Translations under genes and position numbers: made by a program | Part shown: piece after piece, positions 8,320 through 60,287 of the stretch | How the letters are laid out: every line of letters begins with the position of its first letter | How positions within the stretch are numbered: the stretch's first letter is position 1 | UHGV virus genome: UHGV-0856201 | Length of the DNA stretch: 61,875 nucleotides | Direction: 5' to 3' (one strand) | DNA from: a virus | The notes under the pieces: model-generated | What the model saw: only the letters and a program-made list of their open reading frames with translations | What the model was told of the DNA's origin: nothing | Databases searched by the model: none

Positions 8320-8600
8320 TACAGCTAATACAGAACGTGTACTAACTATACATGGTTTTACATAGGTTTCATGATTTTGAGTTACAGCTAATACAGATTC
8401 TGTATTAGTAGATCATAGATTCATAGATTTCGTCATGTTTATTTTTTAACCAACCCCTTTCTATCTTATTCTTTTTATTATCTTTTTATAGATAACATAG
8501 AAAACATAGATAAATAGAAGAGTAGTATAAGTAGTAAAAGTTGCTGCAAGTAGGAGAGGTTTAAAAGGTATAGGGGGTCGCATACTTCCCATGAATCTAT
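8320..8600. other. AT-rich divergent intergenic region with repeats (candidate origin/regulatory hub)
   Basis: Flanked by outward-facing promoters; repeated acagctaataca; ~90-bp block also present at 47697-47785. Confidence 0.4.
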
Positions 8601-24065: not shown

Positions 24066-26586
24066 AGTCATCTATCACACTAACCCTGTTGAACACGCTG
24101 ATAACGTTGACTTTGGTGAATGGATGCTGAAACGCTGGCCCGTGGGTACAGTTCGTCCGCGTGGGTTACTGATTTATAAAAACGACGAAAACATTACCCA
24201 AAAGTGGGTTACTGACCCCAGCGTATTGACTGATCCTGACGCTGTTTATCATATTTATGAACTACCAAAAGGAGGAGTGGTTAGTGCAATAACGAAAGTT
24301 ATTAGCACAATTCTAAACCCCATTTTAAAATTGTTTATGCCGAACACCAGTGCGTCGGCTAATCTTAAGAACTCACGTTCAGCGTCGTCTAACAACGCGC
24401 TTCAGGGGCGTACTAATGCTTCACGACCGGGTGAACGTATTTCTGATATCCGTGGTCGTGTACTGGCATATCCTGACCTGTTAATGGACTACCGAATCTT
24501 CATTGACCGAACAGAATACGAAGTTCAGTTTCTGTGTCTGGGTGCTGGTGAATACGAAGTCGAAGACGTTCGTGATGGTATTACACCTGCTGTAAACATC
24601 AGCGGTGAAAAATTAGACTTTTATAAAAAAGGTAATGCACCAGGGTATGGTTCTCCATATATGAATATCGGTGGTGCAATTGATATTAACACTTTTCCGA
24701 TCATGGTTGCTAAGTCATCGAACGAAGCAGACGGATCTGAAGTCAAGCCACCAAACTATGCTGATATCAGCAAAGCGAGTTTTAAAATTTACAGCACAGG
24801 TGAAATTGATACTACGATTTCCAGCGACGATAATACTACAATCGACTGGTCAGAACGTGCACCAATCGGTAGTAAAATTCGTTTATCACAATTTTACAGT
24901 TTTACACCTAATACGTTACCGTTAAACACGTATGTACGCAATGACCTGTCCGGTGAATATGATGTTATTTATGCAGGTGAGAATACGTTAATCATTGATA
25001 CTAATGGTCATGATGGTTGGGATGCTCTATCTGAAAGTGGTCAGGCTGCGTATACACAGGCTTATTTGCGAAACGATGGTTACTGGGAACTTGAAACCAC
25101 TGAAGGAAGTGGAAGTATTTTATACAAGTTTTCACCGTCTCTTGACAGTACCACGCCGTATATTGTCGGGCCTTATCTGATTGATAGTGCGGATAAGTTG
25201 ATGATTAACCTTTATGCACAAAATGGCGTGTATAAAACTGATGGCGACATTTATCCGTTTACCTGTGATTTCCAGGTAATCTTGTCAGACCCGAACGGTG
25301 TAAAAGCGAATGTGACACACTCTATGTCTGTCCGCGGTCGTTATACAGAAGCTGTAGGTAATTCATTAATTGTGGACAACCCTTTTGACGGTCCTGTCAA
25401 CGTGTCTGTAAGACGACTGTCAAATACAGACAAAGACTTCGAAGGGTCTGTTGTTGACAACATCAAGTGGCGCGATTTGTACGCTATCACGAACGTTTCC
25501 CCGCGTTCCTATGGTGATGTGACATTGATCCATACAGTGACGAAAGCAACAAATGCGGCACTGAAACAAAAAGAACGTAAATTAAACATGATTGCAACCC
25601 GTGTGTATAACGGTGTTGCAAGTAGTAATTTTGCAGACGTTGTATTGTCAATGCACACAGATCCTTTATTTGGTCGTCGCACATTAGACACCATTGATCG
25701 TGATGCTTTATATGCTGTTCAGGCACAAATTCTTGAATATTTTGGTGACCAACGAGCAATTGAAGTTGGCTATACATTTGATAACAACAGTACGACGTAC
25801 GAAGAAGGATTGGACACTATCTGTAACACGGTGAACATTAAACCGTATCAGATCGGTAGTGTATTGTATTTCTGGCCTGAATTACCGCAAGACCAGTCCG
25901 CAATGCAGTTTGGTCATGCGTTTAAAATTCCTGACAGTGACAAACGCACACGTTCTTTCGCACCACCTAAAGAATACACTGGTGTTCAGGTTAAATACTT
26001 CGACCACGATGAAAAATCATATTTGTATGTAACCAAAGGTGAAGAAACAAACCTTAATAAGATAGACCTTGTTGCGTGTCAGTCGCGATATCTTGCAAAC
26101 ATTCGCGCTAATCGTGAGATGAATAAGTTACGTTATCAACGTATCACCCATGAATGTACAGCGCTTAGTATCGGGTTACAGGCTACCCCGGGTATGCGCG
26201 TGGACATGATTGATAACACCCGTATGAAACAACACGAAGGTGTCGTAGTTGACGTTGACGGTTTAACGCTTATTCTCAGCGATCCTGTTACGTTCACCAC
26301 GGGTAATACATACAGCATAACGTTAACACACCGACTGGGAACACTTGAAAATATTCCTATAACTGCCGGGGATAATGAATTTTCAGTGGTAATGGCTTAT
26401 CAACCGTCTGAAGAAATTTATACAGGATGGTTGCGTGACCGTACAGCATATGTGATCCGTGCTGATGATGAAAGAAGTAAATTAGCGATGCTTGTTCAGA
26501 GTATGGAACCGTCAGGAAGGAATAATAACTATCAGGTAGGTTTAACGTGCATCAATTACGATGCACGTTATTATCAGGATGATTAA
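24058..26586 (+). CDS. tail tip / central fiber protein (J-like)
   Basis: 842 aa; last large gene of tail operon. Confidence 0.45.
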   Translation: MSKVIYHTNPVEHADNVDFGEWMLKRWPVGTVRPRGLLIYKNDENITQKWVTDPSVLTDPDAVYHIYELPKGGVVSAITKVISTILNPILKLFMPNTSASANLKNSRSASSNNALQGRTNASRPGERISDIRGRVLAYPDLLMDYRIFIDRTEYEVQFLCLGAGEYEVEDVRDGITPAVNISGEKLDFYKKGNAPGYGSPYMNIGGAIDINTFPIMVAKSSNEADGSEVKPPNYADISKASFKIYSTGEIDTTISSDDNTTIDWSERAPIGSKIRLSQFYSFTPNTLPLNTYVRNDLSGEYDVIYAGENTLIIDTNGHDGWDALSESGQAAYTQAYLRNDGYWELETTEGSGSILYKFSPSLDSTTPYIVGPYLIDSADKLMINLYAQNGVYKTDGDIYPFTCDFQVILSDPNGVKANVTHSMSVRGRYTEAVGNSLIVDNPFDGPVNVSVRRLSNTDKDFEGSVVDNIKWRDLYAITNVSPRSYGDVTLIHTVTKATNAALKQKERKLNMIATRVYNGVASSNFADVVLSMHTDPLFGRRTLDTIDRDALYAVQAQILEYFGDQRAIEVGYTFDNNSTTYEEGLDTICNTVNIKPYQIGSVLYFWPELPQDQSAMQFGHAFKIPDSDKRTRSFAPPKEYTGVQVKYFDHDEKSYLYVTKGEETNLNKIDLVACQSRYLANIRANREMNKLRYQRITHECTALSIGLQATPGMRVDMIDNTRMKQHEGVVVDVDGLTLILSDPVTFTTGNTYSITLTHRLGTLENIPITAGDNEFSVVMAYQPSEEIYTGWLRDRTAYVIRADDERSKLAMLVQSMEPSGRNNNYQVGLTCINYDARYYQDD

Positions 26587-26648
26587 CCAACTATCAAGTA
26601 GGGTTAACGTGCATCAATTACGATGCACGTTATTACCAGGATGATTAA
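26527..26648 (+). repeat. tandem ~60-bp duplication at the 3' end of the tail tip gene
   Basis: 26527-26586 and 26589-26648 near-identical, each with palindrome cgtgcatc..gatgcacg. Confidence 0.85.
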
Positions 26649-30072: not shown

Positions 30073-30285
30073 ATCTTCAACTGATACTTCAATCCACGAT
30101 GCAGGAACCGGATATTCAGTCCTGTACATAAACAAGGATGTTCCTATCAACCCGTGTGGGTCTGTTTTAATCCCTCGCATGTTCAACAACGGAAAAAACT
30201 GTTCACGCGTTTGTGGTAATCGTGCAAAGCGTCCTGTCGGGCGTTTAGCAGGATCCATAGGGTTGAATTCAACGATTGTGGACAT
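30052..30285 (-). CDS. hypothetical protein
   Basis: 77-aa ORF at the end of the minus-strand replication operon. Confidence 0.35.
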   Translation of the reverse strand: MSTIVEFNPMDPAKRPTGRFARLPQTREQFFPLLNMRGIKTDPHGLIGTSLFMYRTEYPVPASWIEVSVEDLLKTVY

Positions 30286-30790
30286 AACAATAACTCCTGT
30301 ACGCTTGTCTTTTTATTTTCTGATAGTCGGAAACTTTTACAGATCTTGTTTTACATTCACCAATACGATGTGGGTCGAAAATAAACATCATCTGTGAACG
30401 GTCATTTCCTCCTGCTGGTAACCCGGTGTCAGGGTCTACAAATGCTATACGGCCTTTAAACACCCATAGTTCCGAACAATGTGTCAGTGCTTTGTGAAAC
30501 CAGTCTGCAGACGTCATAGCGTTCACGAGTAATAACGAACCAGTTCCCTGATGAACAGTGGTTATTATTTTATTAACCCAGGGAGACGGATCGCTGTACG
30601 GTGGGTTACACCAGATGAACCCACCACCATTATTTTGAACAATCGAATGCCAGTCTTTATTCAGACTATCAGTGATAAATAACGAACATTTAGCGTTAGA
30701 ACCATCGGTACACACATCAAGAACAAGTGGGAATTCACGAGAAACGTTATCAATAAAATCCCACGGTGTTTCCCAGTTGTCTTTAGCCAT
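30269..30790 (-). CDS. DNA N6-adenine methyltransferase (phage Dam-type)
   Basis: Start at MAKDNWETPW; motifs WETPWDF, LDVCTDGSNAKC, WCNPPYS. Confidence 0.7.
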   Translation of the reverse strand: MAKDNWETPWDFIDNVSREFPLVLDVCTDGSNAKCSLFITDSLNKDWHSIVQNNGGGFIWCNPPYSDPSPWVNKIITTVHQGTGSLLLVNAMTSADWFHKALTHCSELWVFKGRIAFVDPDTGLPAGGNDRSQMMFIFDPHRIGECKTRSVKVSDYQKIKRQAYRSYCYVHNR

Positions 30791-31136
30791 GTTCAGGTAC
30801 ACTCTCCACGCTGTAATACACAGGAATACCCAGACGTTCAGCTTCTGCAATTTCTGCAATAGTCCCGGACGAACGACGATAATCAGGAAGCACCAGAACA
30901 GCGTCACAGCGGCGCATAATTTCTAACGTGCCTGACAGGTAGTATTCAGGTTGTATATTGCGTAAACCGCCGTCAAAGTCCCACAATTCGGTGTTCTTGT
31001 GAGGGATAACCGGGAACCACCCCGGACGTTGTAAAGCAAGTCGTTTACCCGCCTGTTCAGCACGTGACACGTTACGGGATGTTTTAAGCGCACAGTCAGC
31101 ACGATAAGGCCCTGCAATGTAACAGAGTTTAATCAT
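30783..31136 (-). CDS. DUF4406 / nucleoside 2-deoxyribosyltransferase-like protein
   Basis: Start MIKLCYIAGPYRA; later DAVLVLPDY..SSGTIAEIAEAERLGIPV. Confidence 0.5.
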   Translation of the reverse strand: MIKLCYIAGPYRADCALKTSRNVSRAEQAGKRLALQRPGWFPVIPHKNTELWDFDGGLRNIQPEYYLSGTLEIMRRCDAVLVLPDYRRSSGTIAEIAEAERLGIPVYYSVESVPEHG

Positions 31137-31464
31137 GGTTGTTTTCCTGCATCTGTAAGAACACAATCATTGCTGCACGGAGTGGATTAGCGTGAGAACA
31201 ATAAATTGTAGGTTCGTTAATCATATCCCAACCACATTGATCAAATTCAAAATCACCCCAGGCTAACCATTCGTTTTCATTAGTGTCAAACGCAATGCTA
31301 ATCTTATTTTCAACAATAATCGGCATTGCGTCTGTAGGGTTATTGCAGTAATCAACTACTTGATTCACCAGTTCCAGACGATGTTCGTGTGATGGTTCAC
31401 CGTATAATTTACGACTAACCATTGCGTTGATTGAAATATCACTTAAAACGCTGTAATCAGTCAT
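31129..31464 (-). CDS. hypothetical protein
   Basis: 111-aa ORF, coupled. Confidence 0.4.
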   Translation of the reverse strand: MTDYSVLSDISINAMVSRKLYGEPSHEHRLELVNQVVDYCNNPTDAMPIIVENKISIAFDTNENEWLAWGDFEFDQCGWDMINEPTIYCSHANPLRAAMIVFLQMQENNHD

Positions 31465-31993
31465 GACGATTCATTCCTTCTAACATATCCCAGATAAGTG
31501 CAACACGACGCGGATCCGTGCTGATAGTGTGTAAAGTTTCACATCCGTAATGCCACCCCCAACGAACGGATAATTCTGACAATAGATAACCACGGGAATT
31601 AGCCAGTTCAGCCAGTTCACCGGGTTTAAACGTCGTTGTATTAGGTTCTGTAAGAACACGAGTACCACAGATAGCGTCACTGATGCGCCACGGTTTCATC
31701 AGGTCATCAACTTTGTACCAGTTACTGATACTGATTTCAGATGTTCCCCAGCGTGCAGCCAGTTTCAGACGTTCCTGACGGGCCGGGAACATTGGCATTT
31801 GTGGTAAACGCAGTTGGATCTGTTCTGCAGGTTCGAACATGTCATCATCTGTTAAACGGAATTCACCACGGTCATCAATATAAAAACCACGGGAACGACC
31901 ATCACGGGTGAACCCGTCAACACGGTTGTAAATTTTACCGGGAGTAAAGACACCAATCGGTGAACCAGCTACAAATTTGTGTGAAGTATGCAT
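31457..31993 (-). CDS. hypothetical protein
   Basis: 178-aa ORF downstream of polymerase gene. Confidence 0.4.
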   Translation of the reverse strand: MHTSHKFVAGSPIGVFTPGKIYNRVDGFTRDGRSRGFYIDDRGEFRLTDDDMFEPAEQIQLRLPQMPMFPARQERLKLAARWGTSEISISNWYKVDDLMKPWRISDAICGTRVLTEPNTTTFKPGELAELANSRGYLLSELSVRWGWHYGCETLHTISTDPRRVALIWDMLEGMNRHD

Positions 31994-32032: not shown

Positions 32033-33889
32033 TTACCGAAGTGGTGCAACGAGTTTTTCAGCTTCTTTGATGTAAAAATCATAATTGAGTGTTGCCCGGT
32101 TAAAACGTTTCATGTCGTTGCACTCAGTGGTCAACCAACCTTTACACACTGACATACGGCGTTCAGGCGCATCAGGGTTCAGTTTCAGTGATTTTGCCAG
32201 TGGTGGCATGACTTTTGTCAACGGCGCACCATCTGTACTGACGTAATAACGGGTAATGTTCTGAACCTGTTTATCACCCCATAGTAATTTGCTGTTACGC
32301 GGTACTTTCGTCACTAACATGAAATCGTGAATATCTTCGTGTGATGTTATAAAATCACGAATATCTTTATTGTGTACCAGTGCTGCTTCAGCCGCTTTTG
32401 CGACAACCTGCATACTGTGGTTTTGATGCCAACCAAGGTCAACGCTGTGACAATAAGCGCCTTTACGTTTAACTTTCTTACCACCTTCGTAAACAGCGAT
32501 GTAGTTGTTTACGTCGCGAATAAACATCACGTCATAAATCGCTTCTTCAAGCTGGAGTCTGGTTAATTTTTCCCACGCGTGACGAACCTGTTCTACTTGT
32601 CCGGTAAACACTCGTGGTACGTAAACCGTAAGACCATCTGTGTTAGCCTGGATCATGGACAAACCAGGGATTTTCAGAAGTTCTTCAGCCAACATGCACA
32701 AAAGTAACTGTCCATTAATCGTAATAGCCATTGTATAAGCAGGATCGTAGAATGGACTGTATATGTTATTACTGTCACCATACACACCGTTTAACGCCAG
32801 TTTTAACATTGCATTTTCTGGTGTACCTTTCGGGTAACTGGAACGCATGTCGTAAACATTTTTATAAATGGTGCAAAATTGTTTTCCCAGATGTGCCGGG
32901 TAAAGTTCATTACTGATCGCAAGGTTCGGGTAAAAACTGGCAACGTCCAGATCGATGATCACATAATTTTCAGTGGACCTGATAGTTTGAGACTCAATAG
33001 ACCCGTGGATACCACCCGTACCAAAATCAAACGAGAACCCGTTAATGTCTGCGCTTAAATCTGTGAATACACCTTTTGTTTCAGTGATGACCTGTTGACG
33101 TAACCAGTTAAGAACACGATTAAATTCAGGTTGTTCAAAACGGACATAAGGGAAAATCACACTGTTTAATGCGATTGATGGTCTGTGCGTCTGCCGTGGT
33201 TTTCTGCTACCCGGTTCGAAACATTGAATACCTGATTTTTCAAGTTCCATGATGAAATAGTCTTTACCGATTTTCGTGTCGTTATGGTTCATGAAATTAC
33301 GACCGTATTTAGCAGAAAGTTCACGACGAAAATCGATCAGCTTTTTACTGTGTTTATAAAACATCAAAGTCGCTTTCAAATCGTGCATCAGATATTGACG
33401 AAGCGTATCAATTTGAGAATCGGTTAAATAAGTCCCTGGGATAAACGGAAGGTCTTCAATGTTTTCCATTCTCATGTTGAACTCAAGTGTTTTCAGACTT
33501 GTTCGTTTTGCCTGATTGTCGAAATGATGAATTTTGTACAAATCAAGCTGGGGAACTATCCAGTCTTTTTCCCACACCATATGAGCAAAACGATTTTCAT
33601 CACCGGCGTTAATTATCGAATCGCCTTTTTTGTAAATGTCTGCGTTGGTGATATACATGATGTTGTTCAAAATAGAATGCTGAACAGGATAGTCGTAACC
33701 CAGATTGTTATAACCAACTTCTTCAGCACGATGTTCACGCAAATATTCCGTGAAGAAGTAAAAAGCCTGACGATCATCGCGACGATGTGAAATCTCAAAA
33801 ATATAAGGCGTTTCAGTTAACGCGTGAATAGCACCGAACAGGAAAACATTAGGATAGTTTTCAATATCGTGAACGTAAGCATCTGACAT
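32033..33889 (-). CDS. DNA polymerase (compact; PolB-like motifs)
   Basis: Exo-like DIE near N-term; DLDVASFYPN, KLALNGVYGDSNN, NTDGL resemble polymerase motifs A/B/C; family uncertain. Confidence 0.6.
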   Translation of the reverse strand: MSDAYVHDIENYPNVFLFGAIHALTETPYIFEISHRRDDRQAFYFFTEYLREHRAEEVGYNNLGYDYPVQHSILNNIMYITNADIYKKGDSIINAGDENRFAHMVWEKDWIVPQLDLYKIHHFDNQAKRTSLKTLEFNMRMENIEDLPFIPGTYLTDSQIDTLRQYLMHDLKATLMFYKHSKKLIDFRRELSAKYGRNFMNHNDTKIGKDYFIMELEKSGIQCFEPGSRKPRQTHRPSIALNSVIFPYVRFEQPEFNRVLNWLRQQVITETKGVFTDLSADINGFSFDFGTGGIHGSIESQTIRSTENYVIIDLDVASFYPNLAISNELYPAHLGKQFCTIYKNVYDMRSSYPKGTPENAMLKLALNGVYGDSNNIYSPFYDPAYTMAITINGQLLLCMLAEELLKIPGLSMIQANTDGLTVYVPRVFTGQVEQVRHAWEKLTRLQLEEAIYDVMFIRDVNNYIAVYEGGKKVKRKGAYCHSVDLGWHQNHSMQVVAKAAEAALVHNKDIRDFITSHEDIHDFMLVTKVPRNSKLLWGDKQVQNITRYYVSTDGAPLTKVMPPLAKSLKLNPDAPERRMSVCKGWLTTECNDMKRFNRATLNYDFYIKEAEKLVAPLR

Positions 33890-33969
33890 AATAAAACCCT
33901 GATAAGTAAATGGGGCACTATGGCCCCATGTCTGTTTAAAGCGGTATGTCGTCCCAGTTCCAGTAACTA

Positions 33970-34881
33970 TCAGTAACCGTTACCGTTGAGAAAATTCGGG
34001 GCCGGGGTGGTCATTACCATATAACCGTTAGCGATCAGTTGTTCATCGTTCCAACCTTGCGTAATAAACTGTTCGTAAGTTGCACCACCTGCTTTTTCAG
34101 TCATTACCTTCACAGGTGCTGCCGCTGCTACAGGTGCTGCCGCTGGTGTAGGCGCTGCTACAGGTGCTGCCGCTGGTGTAGGCGCTGCTACAGGTGCTGC
34201 CGCTGGTGTAGGCGCTGCTACAGGTGCTGCCGCTGGTGTAGGCGCTGCTACAGGTGCTGCCGCTGGTGTAGGCGCTGGTGTTACGCCGATCGGACGTGCA
34301 CCTTCAGGCATTGCAGGAGCCGCACCGAACACAGAGGCAGGGGCCGGACCGGAAATGATTTCTTCACCTGCATAAAGCAATTGCGCCATTTCCATGTTGA
34401 TATATACACCAGCCTGATTACCTGTACGACCGTTTGCAACAGATGATCCGCTGATACGGTAGTAATAACCTTTTTTCGCCAGATTTTTATCAATAACTGG
34501 CTGGTACGCTGCGTTATAAACCGGACACGCGTCAATAGCCACGTTGCGTGAGAAACCAATTACCCAGTGACCAGCATAACCAGTTTTACTCGCATGTTTC
34601 GGATCGTCACCGTTAATAATTTTCCATGCGAAAGTAGGTTGTTGTGGTTCGCCGTTCACATAGTGTGAGTTAGCCGCTCGCATGATGGCCTGGAACACCG
34701 CACCAAGTTCACCTTGTTCTTCCCACCAGTTCGCAGCTGTTTTAGGAAATGCCAGACCAACCCACCAGTTATGTTTTTCAGGTGCTAACGGTTTATTTTC
34801 GTGGTCATGAGTGTTGATATCGAAAAAAGAACCGCCAACCAGACGACCAACCGGAGTTACAAAAGATTCTTTCTGTGCCAT
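33970..34881 (-). CDS. putative ssDNA-binding / replication accessory protein with Pro/Ala repeat linker
   Basis: 303 aa; between nuclease and polymerase; AAPVAAPTPA x5; C-terminal YEQFITQGWNDEQLIANGY. Confidence 0.4.
   Translation of the reverse strand: MAQKESFVTPVGRLVGGSFFDINTHDHENKPLAPEKHNWWVGLAFPKTAANWWEEQGELGAVFQAIMRAANSHYVNGEPQQPTFAWKIINGDDPKHASKTGYAGHWVIGFSRNVAIDACPVYNAAYQPVIDKNLAKKGYYYRISGSSVANGRTGNQAGVYINMEMAQLLYAGEEIISGPAPASVFGAAPAMPEGARPIGVTPAPTPAAAPVAAPTPAAAPVAAPTPAAAPVAAPTPAAAPVAAPTPAAAPVAAAAPVKVMTEKAGGATYEQFITQGWNDEQLIANGYMVMTTPAPNFLNGNGY
34115..34280 (-). repeat. 30-bp tandem repeat (5 units) inside CDS
   Basis: ggtgctgccgctggtgtaggcgctgctaca repeated in frame. Confidence 0.9.
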
Positions 34882-34896
34882 GTTATTAACCTTCTT

Positions 34897-36042
34897 TTAA
34901 AGTGGACGTGCGCCAGTCGGCATCGTCACGGGTTTATTAAAAACAGATTCTGCCAGTGTGCTGTGACCTTTACGTGGGTCACTGTCAGGTACTAAAACTG
35001 GCTGACCTTCTGGTTTTGTCGTACACATGTCAACAAGTGCCGGAGGCAGTGATTTTTCCAATGTTGACAACGGTTTTAATTTACGTTCGTACAATGTTTC
35101 AGGGTTTACACCAAACATGGGTGCAGCACCGATCAATTTTCCTTCGTCCGTAAGTTGACGTCGGGTTTGCTTTGTTGCAAGTTTAAAACCCGGTAAAGCC
35201 TTACCCATGCGAACAAAATGTAACCCCTGAGTATGTAAAGCTGTTTTTGCTTCAGAAGAACGCGTATACAGTTCTTCAAGAAGTGCCAGACGACGCGCTA
35301 CTTCTTCTGGCGTAAGTGATGGTGGTGCATCAAGAACAGTAGCCAATTCTAAAATCCTCTCATACATCGCCGGACACATACCACGCGCCGGACAGTAATG
35401 ACAATGACTACCAACATTTAACGGTGCGTCTGGTTTATGTGCCTCGTTAAACCCGTGTTTAAATCGTTCAGCCCATTCCATCAATGTTGCCCGGTTAAAC
35501 TCCCATCGTCTTACAGGTCCGAGTGGGTGATAAGCCCGTGGCTGAACAATTGTGAACACAACGCGCTTAACAGTATCAATACAACGTTGGTCCAGTGCGT
35601 AATAGACCCCCTGTGAGTTATCAACTGCTTCAACTGCAACACGACCATATTTATAATCCCATACGTAAAGCGTATCAGTAATAAAGTCATACCAGCGATA
35701 ATCACAGGTTCCGTACTGACCGGGTAATAACCAGTCAATGTGAATGCGAACTTCTGAAAACAGCGGATCAAGTTTCGCACCAACTGAAAGAACATCTGCT
35801 ATAAAGTCATCCGCGTAAATATGCATGTCTTCAGTAACCTGAACACCGTTAGGAGCAAGACACGGCATTAATGGCGGTTCACCTTTAATCTTCTGTTCTA
35901 ACACCCAGTGTCCGGCTGTACCTTCTTCAGCACTGGGTGATGATGGTTCTACATAGTCAATCTGCTGTGACAGTTGAACGCTACCCGGACAAGCTAACCA
36001 ACGTTTTGATCCACTGGCACTAAAGGTAGCGTGACTGGTCAT
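34897..36042 (-). CDS. PD-(D/E)xK-type nuclease with C-terminal Cys cluster (DUF2800-like)
   Basis: N-terminus SHATFSASGSKRWLACPGS; cluster CHYCPARGMC. Confidence 0.55.
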   Translation of the reverse strand: MTSHATFSASGSKRWLACPGSVQLSQQIDYVEPSSPSAEEGTAGHWVLEQKIKGEPPLMPCLAPNGVQVTEDMHIYADDFIADVLSVGAKLDPLFSEVRIHIDWLLPGQYGTCDYRWYDFITDTLYVWDYKYGRVAVEAVDNSQGVYYALDQRCIDTVKRVVFTIVQPRAYHPLGPVRRWEFNRATLMEWAERFKHGFNEAHKPDAPLNVGSHCHYCPARGMCPAMYERILELATVLDAPPSLTPEEVARRLALLEELYTRSSEAKTALHTQGLHFVRMGKALPGFKLATKQTRRQLTDEGKLIGAAPMFGVNPETLYERKLKPLSTLEKSLPPALVDMCTTKPEGQPVLVPDSDPRKGHSTLAESVFNKPVTMPTGARPL

Positions 36043-36803
36043 CAGAATGCCCCACCCATTTGTTTAACAGATTCAGCCTGACCAACAATGTTTTCAGCAT
36101 CAGCCGGGGCTGCGTTAATGCGTTCAATCAGTTCGATGATAGATTTCAGTTTTACTGGGTCGTCAATCTGCATCACGTTCTGAGTTTCATACAGTCCCAT
36201 GATTCGCTGACTTAATGGCGCAGCACGGTCACCCGTAATTTGTCCAAACATCTGCATCAGTGCTGACTGAAGAACCTGTGTGTTATAAACTTTAGCCGGA
36301 TCCGTGGTTACAGGTTGCTCGACTGGTGCAGCCGGTGCTGCTGGTACAACTGGAGCTACCGGAGCGGCAGGAACCGCTGGAGCAGGATCAACAGGTGCTA
36401 CATAACCCGGTGCAAGTTCTGCAGGTCCGGTATAACGCCCTGCTTCAACTGCTTCAGCAATAAGTTCACGTTTAACACCGTCAACAAACGCTTCATCCAG
36501 TTTTTTCTTCTGACGCCACAGACCATCACCTTTGTTCAGGGATTTACTGTCAATGTGGATACGCGGATCGTGACGCAAACCCCATTTGTCGAACTCTTCA
36601 GTGCTGGTTTCGTTATCGTCAACATCTTCAGTTGGTGCAGATACAACAGGCAGTGATTCAGCAACGACAGTCACAGTTTCTTTAGTGATACCATCACCCT
36701 GAGCAGTCATGAGTGGTGCAGCACCAGTCGCAATCGCTGCTGCCAGATTGTTGATCGCAGTTTCCAGACCCGGAGCAGTTACAAGTAATTTAACTTCGAA
36801 CAT
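36042..36803 (-). CDS. hypothetical protein (first gene of replication operon)
   Basis: 253 aa; Pro/Ala-rich linker; start coupled to promoter copies 7/8. Confidence 0.4.
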   Translation of the reverse strand: MFEVKLLVTAPGLETAINNLAAAIATGAAPLMTAQGDGITKETVTVVAESLPVVSAPTEDVDDNETSTEEFDKWGLRHDPRIHIDSKSLNKGDGLWRQKKKLDEAFVDGVKRELIAEAVEAGRYTGPAELAPGYVAPVDPAPAVPAAPVAPVVPAAPAAPVEQPVTTDPAKVYNTQVLQSALMQMFGQITGDRAAPLSQRIMGLYETQNVMQIDDPVKLKSIIELIERINAAPADAENIVGQAESVKQMGGAF

Positions 36804-36824: not shown

Positions 36825-36876
36825 GGTTGTCGCTAACTTTAAAAGGTGTTGTGTAATCTGTCAAGAATTATTTTAC
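36825..36876 (-). promoter_or_regulatory. conserved phage early promoter (copy 7)
   Basis: ctgtcaagaattattttacac; -35 TTGACA 36859-36864 (minus). Confidence 0.6.
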
Positions 36877-36889
36877 ACTCACCTTTCGT

Positions 36890-36940
36890 TGATGCAGATG
36901 TTAGAGGAATGAGTTGCAATACGTCAAGAACTATTTTAAA
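36890..36940 (-). promoter_or_regulatory. conserved phage early promoter (copy 8, tandem)
   Basis: acgtcaagaactattttaaac; -35 TTGACG 36922-36927 (minus). Confidence 0.5.
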
Positions 36941-36973: not shown

Positions 36974-38635
36974 ATGAAAGCTCGTTATTATCAGACTGAA
37001 GCTATCAATAACGTATGTCAGGCATGGTCAAGCGGTGCTGACGACGTGATTCTTGTGCTTCCCACGGGGGCAGGAAAAACGTTCTGTATGTCTGAACTGG
37101 TAAAAACAAGAGACGGTGTAAAAGTCATCCAGGCACACCGTAAAGAACTGGTTAGTCAAATAGCAATGGCTGTTGCTCGCCAGGGGTTAGCACACAGATT
37201 TATAGCGCAAAAAGATACTGTTAAGTTTGCAACTAATCAGCAGATGAAAACGCTTGGTTACAGTACCTATTCCCCCGGTGCTGACATCGTTATTACCAGT
37301 TCACAAACGTTAAGAACAAAACAGTACGAACGATGGTACAACGACGTGTCTCTTGTATTCAGCGATGAAGCGCATCACCTGGTGCGTGGAACACAGTGGG
37401 GAGACTGCCGGGAAAAATTCCCTAACGCTAAAGGTCTGGGTGTTACAGCTACACCGATCCGTGCTGACGGTAAAGGCTTGGGTCGTCATGCGTCAGGTTA
37501 CGCAGATCAGATGATCATTGGTCCGTCAATGCGTGAGTTAATCAGTCAACAACATCTGGCTGATTATCGTCTGATTATGGCTGAAACAGACCTGGAATTA
37601 ACCGCAGAAATGATTTCCCATACCACGGGTGATTACAAACCTTCTGCATTAAAAAAAGCGATGGAAGATTCAAACATCGTTGGTGATACCGTCAGTACGT
37701 GGAAAACGTACGCAGACGGTTTGCTCACTGTTGTGTTTACGTGTGATGTGGATTCTGCAGAAGCACTGGCAAAAGAATTTCGCGATGCTGGCATTCCTGC
37801 AGAGGCAATCAGTTCACGAAACAGTAATCAGGAACGAGCGGATATTCTGGAACGTTTTGAACGACGTAAAACACTCGTGCTGTGTAACAACGATTTATTC
37901 GGTGAAGGATACGACTGTCCTGCAATGGAATGTGCTGTAATGGACCGTCCAACAGAATCTTACTCTTTGTTTGTACAACAAATGGGTCGTCCGTTGCGTT
38001 TCAAACCGGGTAAAAAAGCACTGATTATTGATAAAGTCGGTAATGTTCGTCGATTTCTGGCCCGTGGTTTTCCACTTCCCGATCAGCATTACAACTGGTC
38101 TTTAGATGACCGTGACCGTCGTTCATCTAACAGCAGTGGGAACAGTAACACAACATGCACAAACAAGGGTGATCCTGATAACGGTATTCCACCGTGTCTG
38201 AAGCCTTATCCGTCTGGTCTTCCGTGCTGCCCGTATTGTGGTCATATTCCTGAAAAAGCCGAACGCTCAGGACCGGATCGTGTAGAAGGTAATTTACGTG
38301 AACTGACACCTGAAGAACTGGAAGAATTACGCCGGGCAGTTGTGATAATCGACCGTGATCCTGTTGCGGTAAAAGAACAAATGTTGAATGCTGGTGCACC
38401 ACCTGTTGCAGCTTACAGTGCAATGAAAAACATTCAGGCAATGAACGATGCACAGCGTAAATTACGTAGCATGATTACCACATGGGCCGGTATTCAGCGT
38501 GATAAAGGTATACCCGTTGATGACGCTTACAAGATGTTTTACAGGGTGTTTGGTGTTGATGTACTTAGTGCACAGGGCTTACGTACTCGTGAAGCTAATG
38601 AACTCGCCGCAAGGGTTGCAAGTTCATTAATCTGA
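36974..38635 (+). CDS. SF2 DEAD/DEAH-box DNA helicase
   Basis: Walker A LPTGAGKT, DEAH box FSDEAHH, C-terminal CCPYCGH zinc finger. Confidence 0.8.
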   Translation: MKARYYQTEAINNVCQAWSSGADDVILVLPTGAGKTFCMSELVKTRDGVKVIQAHRKELVSQIAMAVARQGLAHRFIAQKDTVKFATNQQMKTLGYSTYSPGADIVITSSQTLRTKQYERWYNDVSLVFSDEAHHLVRGTQWGDCREKFPNAKGLGVTATPIRADGKGLGRHASGYADQMIIGPSMRELISQQHLADYRLIMAETDLELTAEMISHTTGDYKPSALKKAMEDSNIVGDTVSTWKTYADGLLTVVFTCDVDSAEALAKEFRDAGIPAEAISSRNSNQERADILERFERRKTLVLCNNDLFGEGYDCPAMECAVMDRPTESYSLFVQQMGRPLRFKPGKKALIIDKVGNVRRFLARGFPLPDQHYNWSLDDRDRRSSNSSGNSNTTCTNKGDPDNGIPPCLKPYPSGLPCCPYCGHIPEKAERSGPDRVEGNLRELTPEELEELRRAVVIIDRDPVAVKEQMLNAGAPPVAAYSAMKNIQAMNDAQRKLRSMITTWAGIQRDKGIPVDDAYKMFYRVFGVDVLSAQGLRTREANELAARVASSLI

Positions 38636-38676
38636 TGGTAATCTGCATAGAAATATTTTAAACGTAAGGAACTGTA

Positions 38677-39183
38677 ATGCGTGATTTGATGGTTGACATT
38701 GAAACGTGTGGTACTAAACCGGGTTGTGCAGTGCTGTCAATTGGCGCTGTTTATTTTGATCGTCAGGGTAATATTGGTGAAACGTTTTACGCATCAATGG
38801 GTTTTAATGCACTTGCTTATGGTCACACGGACCCTGACACTATGAAGTGGTGGTCGCAGCAGTCAGAACAAGCACAAAAAGATGCTTTTGGTGGTACTGC
38901 CGATCCTGTTCAGGTTGCTAAAGATTTTGCCAAATTCATCTGGCACGATGCTAAACCGTGGGGAAATGGTTCCACATTCGATATCACTATTCTGGAAGCA
39001 TGGTTTAATGCTGTTGGGGTTCGTTGCCCGTGGAAGTTCTGGAATGTTCGTGATGTTCGTACAGCTGTTGATTTGCTGGGTATTAACCCGAAAGAATTTA
39101 CCCGTGACGGTACTTACCACAATGCGTTAGACGACTGTTTACACCAGATTAAATATCTTACTAGTGGGACTAAAACATTATGA
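38677..39183 (+). CDS. 3'-5' exonuclease (DnaQ-like fold)
   Basis: MVDIETCG (DxE) and YHNALDD motifs. Confidence 0.65.
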   Translation: MRDLMVDIETCGTKPGCAVLSIGAVYFDRQGNIGETFYASMGFNALAYGHTDPDTMKWWSQQSEQAQKDAFGGTADPVQVAKDFAKFIWHDAKPWGNGSTFDITILEAWFNAVGVRCPWKFWNVRDVRTAVDLLGINPKEFTRDGTYHNALDDCLHQIKYLTSGTKTL

Positions 39184-39671
39184 CAACGCTTGAACAATGG
39201 GCGATTCGTCACGGTATTAGTCAGATGGCGTTGTACGAGTTATACGCGCTTTATCAGCCTGATGGAACACCACACGAAGACGGTGTAAGTGAAAGCGCCA
39301 CCAGTAAAGAGTGTGAACTGATTGCGGCACGTGCCGGGCAACGTATCTGGCGTAATAACTCAGGTGCTCTGAAAAACGAAAAAGGAATGATGGTTCGTTA
39401 TGGTCTTGGTAACACCAGTGCGAAAATCAACGCTGTTATGAAGTCAAGCGACTACATCGGAATTAAAACCAAAATCGTTACACCGGATATGATCGGTTCG
39501 AAAGTGGGCGTCTTTATTGCTGCCGAAATGAAACGCCCTGACTGGCACATGATCCCCAGTGATAAACGTGCACAAGCACAGGCCACTTTCGGTGCGATTG
39601 TTGAAAACGCAGGTGGTGAATTTCGTTTCATTACTCACCCTTCACAATTTGAAAAATGGATTAAACAATGA
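39180..39671 (+). CDS. VRR-NUC domain nuclease
   Basis: IWRNNSGA ... DYIGI ... GVFIAAEMK pattern. Confidence 0.6.
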   Translation: MTTLEQWAIRHGISQMALYELYALYQPDGTPHEDGVSESATSKECELIAARAGQRIWRNNSGALKNEKGMMVRYGLGNTSAKINAVMKSSDYIGIKTKIVTPDMIGSKVGVFIAAEMKRPDWHMIPSDKRAQAQATFGAIVENAGGEFRFITHPSQFEKWIKQ

Positions 39672-39841
39672 ATACTGAACGCATTGAACGTCTGCAAAAA
39701 CTGATTGATAACCACGGTATTGAAGCTGTTGCCAAACGTCTGAACGTTACTGAAATTCATGTTAAACGTAATCTGCTTACCGGGCGATCTGCTATCAACC
39801 TGGTCAAACTGATGGCTGCTGAACGTCAGTTCGGAGCGTAA
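39668..39841 (+). CDS. small DNA-binding protein (57 aa)
   Basis: ATGA overlaps with both neighbours; HTH-like; below ORF-track size cutoff. Confidence 0.4.
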   Translation: MNTERIERLQKLIDNHGIEAVAKRLNVTEIHVKRNLLTGRSAINLVKLMAAERQFGA

Positions 39842-39844
39842 ATT

Positions 39845-42199
39845 ATGAAAGGGTTACTGAACCGTAAACAGTGGGTCATGTGGCGACTTGAGACAGTCGC
39901 CGATCGTCCAAAACCAACGAAAGTACCATACAGCCCGGTACACGGTTATAAAGCCAGTACCACTAACCCTAACGACTGGTCTGACTATCACACCGCGTTA
40001 GGTATGGCGCAAATGTACGGTATGTCCGGTGTTGGTTTTGTATTCACAGAAAACGACCCTTATTTCTTTATCGATGTTGATAACTGTCTGGTAGATCAGG
40101 CAACAGCTACGTGGTCACCACTGGCGCATGAATTCGTAAACCGTTTCCCAAATGCTTACACTGAAGTAAGTCAGTCAGGAACAGGTTTACATATCATCTG
40201 TGCTTATACCAGCATACCGGAAGGTTTTAACAGTCTTAACGACCAGAAAACCGGACTGGAAATGTACTGGCGTGATCGTTTCGTCGCGATGACGCTCACG
40301 GGTAATGGTGATGTTGATATTGATTATACCCAGGGTATTCATGATTCTATTGCCCGGTATGGTCGCATCCGTTCAGACCGTTCCGCACGCTGGACAACAG
40401 CACCCTGTGATGACTGGTCAGGCCCAGCAGACGATGATGAACTGATTAAAATGGCGTTAAATTCGTCCAGTGCTGCTTCAGTATTTGGTAATAAAGCATC
40501 ATTTGCGGATCTGTGGAATGCAAACGTTGAACGCCTGTCTGTGTCATATCCCAGCGACCAGGGAAAAGACTACAATGCATCTGCCGCTGATGCTGCCCTG
40601 TGCTCACACCTTGCTTTCTGGACCGGGAAAGATTGCGAACGCATTGAACGGTTGTTTAACCGTTCCGGGCTGGTTCGTGGTAAATGGACAGACCGTCAGG
40701 ATTACCGTGAGAATACGATTCTGGGCGCTGTGGAACGTTGTGATACGGTTTATTGTAGTCAACCGACACTGACACCAGAACTGATGAAAGCAGTCACACC
40801 AGCACCTACCGTTGTTCCTAACGGTGGAACACCTGCGTACATGAGTGTGAAACCCGGTGAAGGTGCGTATGGTTCAAACCACACGGTTAACGCATCCACG
40901 TTCGTTAATAACTATTATCCGAACAACACATTGATTTTCGTCCAGCAACAGCCGTACCGGTTCAACGGTCGCGTATGGGAACGTGTCAGTGAAGATGAAC
41001 TGAAACATCAGATATCTATGGCAATGCTCGCCAGCGAACCAAAAGCCGATGTGATTAATGGTACGTACAAGGTATTGTCGTATTTATTCACGCGGGCTGA
41101 TCGTGAGCTTGGAACATGGCCCGGTGTTGATGTATCGCACTATATTGTTTGTCAGAACGGAATACTGGATGTACACACGGGTAAATGTGATGCACATAAC
41201 CCGGATTTCTTTACGACCAGTATTTTACCGTATAGCTACGATCCGTTTGCCCGTGCGCCAGCATTTGAACAGTTTTTAAATACAACTCTGGAAGGTGATC
41301 AGGAACGTATTGCATTGTTGCAGGAATGGCTGGGTTACATGCTTGTCAACTCGTATGACTATCAGAAAGCAATGCTGTTGATTGGTGCACCACGTTCCGG
41401 TAAAGGTACGATTGGTCGCATCATTCAGGCACTGGTAGGTGATGAAGCGTATGCAGGGATCACACTGGAGGGTTTAGCAAGTGATGCGGTACTTGAAACT
41501 GTGCTGGATAAATCTGTGCTGTTTATCGGTGATGCTCACAGTGTGTCCGGGCCTGATCGCAACCGAATTCTGGACCGTTTCAAATCTATTACAGGTTGTG
41601 ATGCGATTCCGGTTAATCGTAAGTATAAAGGTGCATGGAACGGTCGTTTACCTGGACGTATGACACTGGCTGCTAACAACATCCCGGCATTTGCTGATGA
41701 TTCCGGTGCAATGGCTAACCGTTTGCTGATCCTACCATTCAACATTTCGTTCCTGGGTCGTGAAGATACCACTCTGGAAGCACGACTGATGAAAGAACTA
41801 CCGGGGATCTGTAACTGGGCGATTGAAGGTTTACAACGATTACGTGCAAACGGACGGTTTACTGAACCAAAAGCAAGTATGGAAGAACGTCAGGAAATTA
41901 TGGATCAACAATCACCACTTAGAAGTTTTATCAGAGATTGTTGCGAATTGGTATCTGATGGTGAGGTGCATACTGAAGAACTATATGGTCGTTATCGTCT
42001 CTGGAAAACACAGGAAGGTGGTCCAGCAATGACTAAAACTGCATTTAGTCGGGCGTTTAAATCCACCCTTCGTGGTAAAGTGAAAAAAGACGTTGTTAAT
42101 ATAAATAACGTACGACTAAACGGTTTCAGGGGTGTTCGTCTTCTCCCTTTTCAGTCAACAGCTAATGTAGTGCCTTTCCCACCTGCGAGTAACGGTTAG
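39845..42199 (+). CDS. primase / D5-like helicase-primase (P4-type)
   Basis: 784 aa; Walker A GAPRSGKGT; Walker B-like VLFIGDAH; N-terminal primase-like region. Confidence 0.75.
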   Translation: MKGLLNRKQWVMWRLETVADRPKPTKVPYSPVHGYKASTTNPNDWSDYHTALGMAQMYGMSGVGFVFTENDPYFFIDVDNCLVDQATATWSPLAHEFVNRFPNAYTEVSQSGTGLHIICAYTSIPEGFNSLNDQKTGLEMYWRDRFVAMTLTGNGDVDIDYTQGIHDSIARYGRIRSDRSARWTTAPCDDWSGPADDDELIKMALNSSSAASVFGNKASFADLWNANVERLSVSYPSDQGKDYNASAADAALCSHLAFWTGKDCERIERLFNRSGLVRGKWTDRQDYRENTILGAVERCDTVYCSQPTLTPELMKAVTPAPTVVPNGGTPAYMSVKPGEGAYGSNHTVNASTFVNNYYPNNTLIFVQQQPYRFNGRVWERVSEDELKHQISMAMLASEPKADVINGTYKVLSYLFTRADRELGTWPGVDVSHYIVCQNGILDVHTGKCDAHNPDFFTTSILPYSYDPFARAPAFEQFLNTTLEGDQERIALLQEWLGYMLVNSYDYQKAMLLIGAPRSGKGTIGRIIQALVGDEAYAGITLEGLASDAVLETVLDKSVLFIGDAHSVSGPDRNRILDRFKSITGCDAIPVNRKYKGAWNGRLPGRMTLAANNIPAFADDSGAMANRLLILPFNISFLGREDTTLEARLMKELPGICNWAIEGLQRLRANGRFTEPKASMEERQEIMDQQSPLRSFIRDCCELVSDGEVHTEELYGRYRLWKTQEGGPAMTKTAFSRAFKSTLRGKVKKDVVNINNVRLNGFRGVRLLPFQSTANVVPFPPASNG

Positions 42200-46664: not shown

Positions 46665-47468
46665 TTATTGACCCATCATATCTTTATACATCATCAAAAC
46701 AACATCATCCGGCATATTATCTACATCGCAATGCGGGTTGTGTGATAACGCATACAACCTGATTTTCTCCTTCAAATCGCTGACATCGACTACAGGTGCT
46801 TCCACTCGTGCTACAGGTGCTTCCACTCGTGCTACAGGTGCTTCCACTCGTGCTACAGGTGCTTCCACTCGTGCTACAGGTGCTTCCACTCGTGCTACAG
46901 GTGCTTCACAAACCATCACGTTAAACGGTGTCCCGGTGTCTTCGTATTTTTCAAGCAAATCGACCATTACATTTACACATTCCGGGATCCATCCCCGGCG
47001 CAAACCATTCTGAATCCAACTGTCAGTAATTGTGTGTTCATTTAAATTCCTGCGTAACACGTATCTTGCACATTCAAAATTACCACACATCGCCTCAAAC
47101 CGTGTCCACACGTCGTGACCGTGAACAGCTTCCAGGATCTGTGAATCAACGTATCTGACACGTTGCCAGTAGTTATTAGCAAAACGCCTGTGTGGTAATT
47201 TCTGACGCAGTTCGGTAACCGGTATTGTGTGTTTAAGAACAATGTTTTCGTCAGAATGTTGTACTGACAAGGGTGACAGTGTGAAGTCAGTAATCTCTTC
47301 AAGAATAATACTGATCGTTTCATATTTAGGATGAAACCTACCGCTTAACCATTGGTTGTAACGACCAACAGTTACCTTAACACCTCGACGATTAAGGTAT
47401 TCAACAGCATTTTGTACCCCGCCTTTTAAATCTATCAATTCGTCTAAAAGGTTCTTTTTCATTATCAC
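46665..47468 (-). CDS. hypothetical protein with EAPVARV x6 repeat
   Basis: 267 aa; HTH-like N-terminus; adjacent to iteron-rich region. Confidence 0.5.
   Translation of the reverse strand: MIMKKNLLDELIDLKGGVQNAVEYLNRRGVKVTVGRYNQWLSGRFHPKYETISIILEEITDFTLSPLSVQHSDENIVLKHTIPVTELRQKLPHRRFANNYWQRVRYVDSQILEAVHGHDVWTRFEAMCGNFECARYVLRRNLNEHTITDSWIQNGLRRGWIPECVNVMVDLLEKYEDTGTPFNVMVCEAPVARVEAPVARVEAPVARVEAPVARVEAPVARVEAPVVDVSDLKEKIRLYALSHNPHCDVDNMPDDVVLMMYKDMMGQ
46788..46915 (-). repeat. 21-bp tandem repeat (6 units) inside CDS
   Basis: tccactcgtgctacaggtgct repeated head to tail. Confidence 0.9.
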
Positions 47469-47479
47469 CCCTCCTTATT

Positions 47480-48050
47480 TAACCACGGGTAAATCATAAC
47501 TCGTGTTAGCAGCTAGTGCAAGATGTGCTTTATATGTTAGTGTATTTACACCTAATGCATGTTGTGCTTTAGCAGCTAGTGCAAGATGCACGTTGTGTAT
47601 TAGCTGTTAGTGCACGTTGTGTATCTATGTTGGTACAGCTAATGCATGTTGTGCTTTATATAGTGCATATTGTGCATTAAAGTTATACTTAACATAGATT
47701 TCGTCATGTTTATTTTTTAACCAACCTCTCTCTATCTTATTCTTTTTATTATCTTTTTATAGATAACATAGAAAACATAGATATAAAGAAGAAGTAGTAT
47801 AGAAAGATAGAGATAGTGCATATAGTGTATTAGCTGTAAATAGAGCTAAAATAAAAGTCTGGGAGATACCTATTGTAATCTATGTTTTTATGCAAGTCTT
47901 TGAAATGATTGTGATTATGGGTTACGTATTTATGTATGTGGTCGAAAATTAGTGCATGTTGTGCACTAACTGTAAACTTAATACTAACATTGTATTAGCT
48001 GTAAAACAGGCCGTGTAGACAACCCGCGGGTATCTGTGGGAAACTAATTT
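47480..48050. other. iteron-rich AT-rich intergenic region (candidate origin / pac / operator array)
   Basis: Multiple agctagtgcaagatg and tgcatgttgtgc copies; second copy of the ~90-bp block at 8421-8510. Confidence 0.45.
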
Positions 48051-60060: not shown

Positions 60061-60187
60061 TCCTGTCAGTTAACATACTTCGCGATCAGTTTATCACAGT
60101 CCTCGCGACAGGTAGCATACTTAAACAGGTCACTTGCTGCTTCTGCCCGGTAGTCAGTATCAATAGTGTAATGTTCATTGACATAGT
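60061..60187. repeat. 127-bp exact repeat of phage start (1681-1807); circular-contig overlap
   Basis: 60061-60187 identical to 1681-1807; length 127 equals a common assembler k-mer size. Confidence 0.9.
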
Positions 60188-60287
60188 NNNNNNNNNNNNN
60201 NNNNNNNNNNNNNNNNNNNNNNNNNNNNNNNNNNNNNNNNNNNNNNNNNNNNNNNNNNNNNNNNNNNNNNNNNNNNNNNNNNNNNNN
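60188..60287. other. 100-N scaffold gap
   Basis: Run of exactly 100 N. Confidence 1.

Follow-up and report, generated by a model that had tools for sequence, protein, structure and literature searches.

Modules in which duf2800, gp2.5, and polA genes stand together have been described in phages of both Gram-positive and Gram-negative hosts (PMC8093625), and DUF2800 has been classed as RecB-like (PMC3424549). Sashavirus and Nonanavirus have been placed in a clade of phages that encode a family B DNA polymerase, or PolB (PMC11348598, 2024), and intra-family PolB replacements have been suggested for this clade (PMC11348598). Here we compare with these systems a four-gene locus at positions 32033 to 36803 of the virus genome UHGV-0856201, whose whole stretch of 61,875 nucleotides (nt) is called the window below. 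In the direction of transcription, the locus encodes a 253-amino acid (aa) protein that we term g253, a DUF2800 nuclease, a gp2.5/DUF2815-type single-stranded DNA-binding protein (SSB), and a 618-aa DNA polymerase. The best explanation as a whole, to which we assign a probability of about 0.82, is that a Sashavirus, a 9NA-like siphophage, has here the leftward half of its replication-recombination region. An initial annotation of the window had likened the gene order to a DUF2800-DUF2815-polymerase triad of other phages. Indeed, this triad has been published as the duf2800-gp2.5-polA module (PMC8093625), with a PolB occupying the polymerase slot here.

The open reading frame (ORF) listing and direct translation reveal four co-oriented genes on the minus strand, each with an ATG start codon. 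Their outer boundaries coincide exactly with the interval initially proposed, and the proposed order of unknown gene, nuclease, SSB, and polymerase is that of minus-strand transcription; every motif quoted at that stage was recovered at its place by direct translation. The g253 stop codon overlaps the nuclease start codon by one base, the nuclease and SSB genes are separated by 15 nt containing AAGAAGG, and the SSB and polymerase genes are separated by 80 nt. The entire 4771 nt is 97.1% identical, over 100% of its length, to Salmonella phage vB_SenS_Sasha, and several other Sashavirus genomes match the block at 96 to 98%. Because of this match, and because the polymerase matches 4835 protein clusters (50% identity level, E ≤ 0.001), chance is not an issue. 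In the Sasha RefSeq record (NC_047786), the corresponding genes are annotated as a hypothetical protein (gp65), an exonuclease (gp64), a Gp2.5-like ssDNA-binding/annealing protein (gp63), and a DNA polymerase (gp62), and the record further marks a direct tandem repeat within gp63 and, in the gp63-gp62 interval, a terminator. The identical gene arrangement is present in 9NA and in Escherichia coli phage Bas82. Established for this locus are the gene structure, the family memberships, the conservation of catalytic residues, the fold of the polymerase, and the synteny. The initial observation and its interpretation are correct; the block was already sequenced and annotated and the PolB assignment was published in 2024, and hence they are not new.

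By sequence profile and structural model, the 618-aa protein is a family B DNA polymerase, as the initial annotation had favored over family A. Its motifs comprise DIE (residues 8-10), NNLGYD (61-66), YLMHD (166-170), DLDVASFYPN (313-322), KLALNGVYG (363-371), and NTDGL (416-420). DEDDy 3′-5′ exonuclease motifs (Exo I, D8-I-E10; Exo II, N62-L-G-Y-D66; Exo III, Y166-L-M-H-D170) precede the polymerase domain, in which motif A (D315-V-A-S-F-Y-P-N) and motif B (K363-L-A-L-N-G-V-Y-G) are aligned by HMMER to their counterparts in the 9N/KOD polymerases. The family B consensus forms are DxE, Nx2-3[FY]D, and Yx3D for Exo I to III, DxxSLYPS for motif A, and Kx3NSxYG for motif B. Since Exo I sits at residue 8, the N-terminal domain of archaeal PolBs is absent. 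Residues D66, D315, K363, and N416-T-D418-G are invariant in 50 relatives, and D8, E10, N62, Y166, D170, and N367 are conserved in at least 90% of them. Using tblastn, 967 phage records were found to match the polymerase.

To place the protein, a profile was built from 50 sequences, namely the window protein and 49 relatives that are 43 to 53% identical to it. This diverse set was drawn from a search of 50%-level representatives; homologue listings showed only near-identical Sashavirus proteins among the 120 matches listed. The profile matched 56 Protein Data Bank (PDB) sequences at E ≤ 1, none of them named as family A or phi29-type, and the 44 matches below E = 0.03 are all family B DNA polymerases. 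The top matches were KOD/9N (9.6e-7), and Pol alpha, E. coli Pol II, and the African swine fever virus (ASFV) polymerase were also among them. A single-sequence phmmer search of the PDB gave a best match to an archaeal PolB (E = 0.017). Pfam DNA_pol_B_exo2 is matched by 20 of the 50 relatives, and PF00136 is touched by two, at E = 0.02 or weaker. An AlphaFold2 model of the polymerase has a mean predicted local distance difference test score (pLDDT) of 96 and a predicted template modeling score (pTM) of 0.91. When this model was compared with the PDB by Foldseek, the top 50 matches were all family B polymerases or engineered variants of them (E from 3.5e-15 to 3e-13, probability 1.0). In a viral structure library, the named matches were phage polymerases, including crAss-like enzymes labeled family B, followed by polymerases of large DNA viruses. 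Thus, the profile searches keep the protein within the DNA polymerases, and the structural comparison that had been recommended at the outset returns family B enzymes and neither phi29-type nor family A polymerases among its top 50.

The nuclease matches Pfam DUF2800 (PF10926) across the full model (E = 7.6e-58, model positions 1-368 of 368), as well as Pfam PDDEXK_1 (E = 3.8e-7) and PHROG 69 'exonuclease' (9.5e-90). Characteristic residues are Cys18, D114, D129-Y-K131, Q144xxxY148, and the CHYCPARGMC cluster at 214-223 (C214-x2-C217-x5-C223). The initial annotation had named the lack of PD-(D/E)xK residues as grounds for discarding its nuclease assignment; D114, D129-x-K131, and Q144 are present and, like C214, C217, and C223, they are invariant in six homologues that are 21 to 80% identical to the window protein. 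The residue C18 is present in four of the six aligned sequences. One N-terminal Cys together with CX2CX5C is the pattern by which iron-sulfur nucleases of the Cas4/AddB type ligate a 4Fe-4S cluster, and the nuclease carries this four-Cys pattern in its sequence. The Cas4-like PD-(D/E)xK nuclease originally proposed is therefore retained in part. The PD-(D/E)xK residues and the Cys cluster are there, and the protein can be called Cas4-like only in a broad sense that takes in RecB/AddB/AdnA; with no match to a Pfam Cas4 family at E ≤ 0.01, it is not filed as Cas4 proper. No meaningful PDB match for the nuclease was obtained with phmmer.

The proposal of an SSB-like protein likewise held, by its matches to DUF2815 (at a marginal score, given below), to PHROG 7011 'Gp2.5-like' (8.5e-101), and to PDB structures. 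A profile of four SSB core domains matched solely DUF2815-type PDB entries, namely 4jg2 (5.4e-4) and, at an E value of about 1, the Enc34 SSB (5odk/5odj). The protein is 77% identical to 9NA gp66. It is built from a ~190-aa core, a linker made of repeats, and a small, conserved domain at the C-terminus whose last residues are NFLNGNGY. This ending, ...TTPAPxFLxGNG(Q)Y, is kept from Sashavirus to Gorganvirus; the protein closes with an aromatic residue (Y303), and its tail is non-acidic. T7 gp2.5 has an acidic C-terminal tail that ends in Phe and contacts the polymerase and the helicase.

The length of the SSB varies in close relatives (303, 316, and 343 aa; loci Bas82 4776-5807 and 9NA 3642-4592), and SSBs of the Gorganvirus type carry a different repeat linker, QQQASVT, in the same place (locus L004, 5619-6581). 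Because both the linker repeat unit and the length differ among relatives, a flexible spacer of variable length seems to be the conserved feature.

Table 1 Coordinates of the four-gene locus, its putative expression signals, and the flanking genes in the window
Feature	Position	Strand	Basis and remarks
g253, first gene	36803..36042	(-)	253 aa; function not assigned
DUF2800 PD-(D/E)XK nuclease, RecB/AddB/AdnA type	36042..34897	(-)	381 aa
gp2.5/DUF2815 (Enc34-type) ssDNA-binding/annealing protein (SSB)	34881..33970	(-)	303 aa
Compact family B DNA polymerase	33889..32033	(-)	618 aa
30-nt tandem repeat encoding the PTPAAAPVAA linker of the SSB	34123..34277	(-)	5.2 copies, 100% matches; Tandem Repeats Finder (TRF); annotated in Sasha
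Putative distal sigma-70-like promoter, TTGACG-18 nt-TAACAT	36898..36927	(-)	Promoter scan; inside a copy of the phage-wide motif TAAAATAgTTCTTGAC; presumed function
Putative proximal sigma-70-like promoter, TTGACA-17 nt-TAAAGT	36836..36864	(-)	Promoter scan; second motif copy; 10/12 consensus positions; ~33 nt upstream of g253
GC-rich 7-bp hairpin and weak U-tract in the SSB-polymerase spacer	33910..33929	(-)	Terminator scan, RNA folding; annotated terminator in Sasha
Next gene of the leftward unit	31457..31993	(-)	178 aa; 39 nt past the polymerase; PHROG 19205 'unknown function'
Divergent block: superfamily 2 (SF2) helicase	36974-38635	(+)	Pfam/PHROG
Divergent block: Rv2179c-like 3′-5′ exonuclease	38677-39183	(+)	Pfam/PHROG
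Divergent block: PHROG 93 endonuclease	39180-39671	(+)	Pfam/PHROG
Divergent block: small ORF	39668-39841	(+)	
Divergent block: NrS-1-type primase-polymerase/D5-type helicase protein	39845-42199	(+)	Pfam/PHROG

The first gene product, g253, has no Pfam match and falls in PHROG 27827 'unknown function'. Full-length relatives were found only in Sashavirus, Nonanavirus, and related Klebsiella phages. A conserved central motif (aa 72-97), D-x2-G-x3-D-x-R-I-H-x3-K-x2-N-x(1-2)-D-G-x-W-[RK], is followed by a Pro/Ala-rich linker and a C-terminal helical domain. Gorganvirus-type phages carry this motif in the gene that opens the same module, as do Proteus phage RS10pmA, Morganella phage Henu15, and Klebsiella phage RCIP0081, and this recurrence of the g253 family in other phage groups may be a new point. 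A single 435-aa ORF of Enterobacter phage Mulvp2 (locus 4194-5501) encodes an Rv2179c-like 3′-5′ exonuclease domain and, after it, the motif region; this ORF lies in a module whose polymerase is annotated 'DNA polymerase I'. Because this fusion was found in one record only of the phage collection, we take it as a hint. A further tblastn match to the motif is in Stenotrophomonas phage B2, where it coincides with a gene annotated as a RecT-like ssDNA annealing protein. An AlphaFold2 model of g253 built from eight sequences is unreliable (pLDDT 53, pTM 0.30), and because of this low pLDDT no fold is claimed. It is possible, if doubtful, that g253 is a genuine fourth component of the module, a portable docking element that brings in proteins of recombination and replication and substitutes for the missing clamp of this NTDG-type PolB; such a docking or adaptor role is a guess.

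The window's own Rv2179c-like exonuclease is encoded by a separate gene (38677-39183, plus strand). Some GenBank records label g253 as a 'TonB receptor' or a 'helicase'. We rejected both labels, since no helicase domain is present and the TonB label probably reflects the Pro/Ala-rich linker.

Upstream of g253 lie two copies of a 16-nt motif, GTCAAGAATTATTTTA (in the promoter sense TAAAATAATTCTTGAC, often followed by GGATTACAC), which occurs 15 times in the window, compared with 0.11 copies expected. The copies are located at 2084, 3587, 8300, 8604, 15014, 17774, 19721, 36860, 36923, 42218, 43767, 49093, 51050, 52673, and 58242, with 11 oriented leftward and four rightward. When these sites are aligned, a UP-like A/T-rich block and a -35 element (TTGAC) are conserved and the -10 element is variable. 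Both copies upstream of g253 have a -10-like hexamer 17 to 18 nt downstream, and most other copies have a hexamer starting with TA at a similar distance, as judged by eye without scoring. From its sequence, the motif looks like the standard promoter of the phage.

The SSB-polymerase spacer contains a hairpin, and in four lineages a hairpin lies at this position despite sequence divergence. 9NA has the same hairpin, and what two Gorganvirus-type phages carry there is a canonical terminator hairpin unrelated to it. The element is likely a partial terminator or attenuator, as read from the sequence, and its positional conservation suggests a shared means of keeping SSB output above that of the polymerase. 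The positionally conserved hairpin between these two genes may also be a new point.

Together, these features are consistent with the following scheme, in which enzymatic activities, nuclease polarity, promoter and terminator function, protein-protein contacts, and any role of g253 are what we infer. The two tandem copies of the phage-wide sigma-70-type promoter probably drive a transcript through g253, nuclease, SSB, polymerase, and further genes, with g253 and the nuclease presumably translationally coupled through their one-base stop/start overlap. The 618-aa protein would be the replicative polymerase of the phage, a compact family B enzyme that carries a DEDDy exonuclease for proofreading, most likely primed by the primase-helicase of the divergent block. 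The gp2.5/DUF2815 protein would coat and anneal single-stranded DNA, and the DUF2800 RecB-like nuclease probably resects DNA ends. The two proteins would then form a two-component recombinase like T7 gp6/gp2.5 or lambda Exo/Beta, and through this pair, replication that depends on recombination would be supported, as would the formation of concatemers. By virtue of the spacer hairpin, SSB output probably exceeds polymerase output.

Several observations weigh against the account given above. The literature yielded no measured activity for any of the four proteins. The 618-aa sequence itself has no Pfam match at E ≤ 0.01, and its NCBIfam match to Pol II reaches E = 0.022 and 13 bits. Because the curated models (Pfam PF00136/PF03104 and NCBIfam) miss this clade, membership in family B rests on the profile comparison with the PDB and on structure. 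Foldseek template modeling scores to solved PolBs are about 0.4 to 0.5, which is expected for multi-domain enzymes of 750 or more residues. Motif C reads N416-T-D418-G versus DTDS elsewhere, the second Asp being kept and the first replaced by Asn. The NTDG sequence does not vary among the 50 relatives and recurs in crAss-like cr1_1, Pseudomonas phages 73 and JG012, 9NA, and Morganella phage Henu15; by these alignments it is a clade-wide variant rather than a defect of this copy. Likewise, N461-x-Y463 aligns with the KxY motif of 9N polymerase with Asn replacing Lys. No sliding-clamp gene emerged when two queries, the clamp/processivity genes of phages 73 and JG012, were compared by phmmer with the 299 ORFs of the window (none below E = 1), a low-sensitivity search that a divergent clamp could escape, and the polymerase C-terminus carries no QLxLF-type motif resembling a clamp-binding site. 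The DUF2815 (Enc34_ssDNA-bd, PF10991) score of the SSB is 26.2 bits against a cut-off of 26 and is marginal. As for the expression signals, the promoter scan gave fewer sites than were found in shuffled sequence (5 versus 10.6), and therefore the promoter call rests on the repeated motif. The hairpin has a weak U-tract, and folding of the spacer as a whole gives a z-score (0.05) that is not significant; therefore, the hairpin call rests on position and conservation. The NTDG sequence across the whole PolB clade, the missing N-terminal domain, and the lack of a detected clamp gene may be new points.

Alternative identities of the polymerase can be judged against the same data. The module is mostly described with PolA (PMC8093625), and in phage Mulvp2 it contains the gene annotated 'DNA polymerase I', both of which would favor a family A enzyme of the T7/Pol I type at this locus. 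However, family A is absent from the profile matches in the PDB, from the Foldseek top 50, and from the Pfam matches, where DNA_pol_A hit neither the window polymerase nor any of the 50 relatives, and the patterns DxxSFYP, Kx3NxxYG, and xTDG are those of family B. The hallmarks of family A are a Pol I-type palm and fingers and the motifs DYSQIELR, RRxAKxxNFGxxYG, and HDE. Given the lack of any family A entry in the profile search or the Foldseek top 50, we rejected this assignment, whose probability we consider negligible. A protein-primed PolB of the phi29 type, which replicates from terminal proteins, is suggested by the short length of the enzyme, by an N-terminal domain that is missing as in phi29 polymerase, and by the position of Exo I at residue 8. 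Further hallmarks of this type are TPR1/TPR2 insertions, a terminal-protein gene, and inverted terminal repeats. Yet RNA/DNA-primed PolBs of archaea and eukaryotes give the best matches in both sequence and structure, the phage has its own primase-helicase gene, and the genome unit closes on itself in the window, which fits circular permutation and not ends capped by terminal protein. With no phi29-type entry at E ≤ 1 in the PDB search or in the Foldseek top 50, this type was also rejected as very improbable.

The remaining alternatives concern what a family B enzyme and its partner proteins do. The polymerase might serve in repair or gap filling in the manner of Pol II, leaving bulk replication to host Pol III. 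The absence of a detected phage clamp or clamp-binding motif speaks for such an accessory role, as does the fact that the distant clade members 73 and JG012 adjoin a clamp-annotated gene, with none detected here. However, this is the sole polymerase gene found in the replication region, it is set among helicase, primase-helicase, SSB, and nuclease genes in an arrangement kept in Sashavirus, Nonanavirus, Gorganvirus, and others, and the clamp search was the two-query phmmer comparison described above. We therefore regard an accessory role as unlikely and favor a replicative one. For the nuclease-SSB pair, the rival proposal is that it mainly degrades host DNA or counters host defenses rather than serving phage recombination. 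The DUF2800 protein of phage Bas14, which is AdnA/RecB-like, is the trigger sensed by retron type IX (bioRxiv 10.64898/2026.07.14.737667), and so DUF2800-type nucleases do interact with host immunity. Being sensed by a defense system does not make a protein an anti-defense factor, however, and the constant pairing of the nuclease with an annealing-type SSB and a polymerase in many phages points to DNA metabolism (PMC8093625). The chance that the pair acts chiefly on host DNA or defenses is small, and a role in phage recombination is preferred.

Several side observations concern relatives of the polymerase. Pseudomonas phages 73 (locus 3209-4351) and JG012 (locus 3301-4254) have a gene annotated as a beta-clamp/processivity factor directly upstream of the polymerase gene, a place occupied in the window by the SSB gene, and queuosine/7-deazaguanine genes adjoin the polymerase and clamp genes of JG012. 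Homologous polymerase genes are split into two tblastn pieces in Klebsiella phages FZ14 and RCIP0055 and in Rheinheimera Barba phages; in one of these, a T5orf172-domain gene lies under the match, which suggests a mobile insertion.

Beyond the polymerase, the next gene of the leftward unit occupies the same position in Sasha (gp61), 9NA (gp64), and Bas82 (Bas82_0065), and its product is 84% identical to the 9NA protein. Farther along, the ORF at the DNA methyltransferase position (30269-30907, minus strand) encodes 212 aa from a GTG start in the mechanical ORF list. At this position, Sasha and 9NA each have a gene of 1182 nt, and Bas82 has one of 522 nt. Because these lengths differ, the accessory region downstream of the polymerase varies among close relatives. 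On the other side, the layout of the divergent block (36974..42199, plus strand) is shared with Sasha, 9NA, and Bas82. The helicase of RCIP0081 has an intein with Hom_end_hint and LAGLIDADG domains (locus L005, 930-3626).

Elsewhere in the window, exact 127-nt repeats (1680-1806 = 60061-60187; 48532-48658 = 60288-60414) were noted, and 1680-60060 represents one closed genome unit of 58,381 bp. Megablast matched neither 1-1679 nor the stretch from about 60188 to 61875 to Sashavirus genomes. The window ends look like an assembly-graph artifact (k = 127) or variant cassettes appended to a circular contig. Two further in-register arrays of 21-nt tandem repeats (8808-9122 and 46769-46928, the second with 100% identical copies) probably encode 7-aa repeats. 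Other repeats include a 100-nt A/T-rich element in two copies that are 96% identical (8422-8521 and 47693-47792), a 254-nt pair at 81% (5955-6208 and 14250-14503), a 62-nt tandem pair with an internal palindrome (26512-26635), and an 82-nt element present three times, ~200 nt apart (18996-19476), which likely reflects small paralogous genes.

The practical value of these findings is modest, in that they confirm the annotation of a common group of E. coli and Salmonella phages used in biocontrol and phage collections. A very large clade of phage PolBs (4835 clusters at the 50% level, 967 phage records) escapes the polymerase models of Pfam and NCBIfam, and therefore automated pipelines can leave such polymerase genes unnamed; several database copies of the 618-aa protein are labeled 'hypothetical protein'. 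The module is also a clean example of one nuclease-SSB frame that can hold either PolA or PolB, which bears on how well phage replisomes tolerate polymerase swapping.

The closest systems are Sasha itself (gp65-gp62), Sergei, Solent, Sashavirus 536P12/BDX09P1, and the E. coli phages PJ16, Bas82, and AVIO78A, which have the same four genes in the same order, strand, and spacing. Nucleotide identity over the region is 97%, the polymerase proteins are up to 99% identical, and the repeat region and terminator are annotated at the same places. The differences are limited to point changes and the number of linker repeats in the SSB, which reaches 343 aa in Bas82, compared with 303 aa in Sasha and at this locus. 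Salmonella phage 9NA (Nonanavirus) carries the same module as gp68-gp65, with the same flanking genes on both sides. Amino acid identity to 9NA is 57% for the polymerase, 71% for g253, 80% for the nuclease, 82% for the SSB core, and 84% for the downstream 178-aa protein, making the polymerase the most diverged product, and its identity climbs back to 94% over the last 18 residues. Judged from these sequence comparisons, the divergence of the polymerase fits the intra-family PolB replacement proposed in PMC11348598.

More distant members of the polymerase clade, including the crAss-like PolB, Pseudomonas phages 73 and JG012, and Agrobacterium phage 7-7-1 (PHROG 1252 and relatives), share the same compact architecture and the motif variants, including NTDG. 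Phages 73 and JG012 have an upstream clamp-annotated gene and crAss cr1_1 ends in a QLNLF-type motif, whereas the Sashavirus enzyme has neither. With KOD, 9N, Pfu, Pol alpha, and E. coli Pol II, the enzyme shares the exonuclease/palm/fingers/thumb fold, and the order of Exo I-III and of motifs A-C agrees. Compared with these archaeal and eukaryotic PolBs and Pol II, it is ~130 residues shorter N-terminally, has NTDG for DTDS and N461-x-Y463, and is 10 to 13% identical. Finally, the duf2800-gp2.5-polA modules and the T7 gp2.5-gp5-gp6 genes, which serve as the functional paradigm, resemble this locus in bringing together a PD-(D/E)XK or other 5′ exonuclease, a gp2.5-type SSB/annealase, and a replicative polymerase, with no separate classical ssb gene. 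In contrast to them, the polymerase here belongs to family B rather than family A, the nuclease is RecB-like rather than a FEN-type enzyme such as T7 gp6, and where T7 gp2.5 has its acidic tail, the SSB here closes with a small folded domain and ...GNGY.

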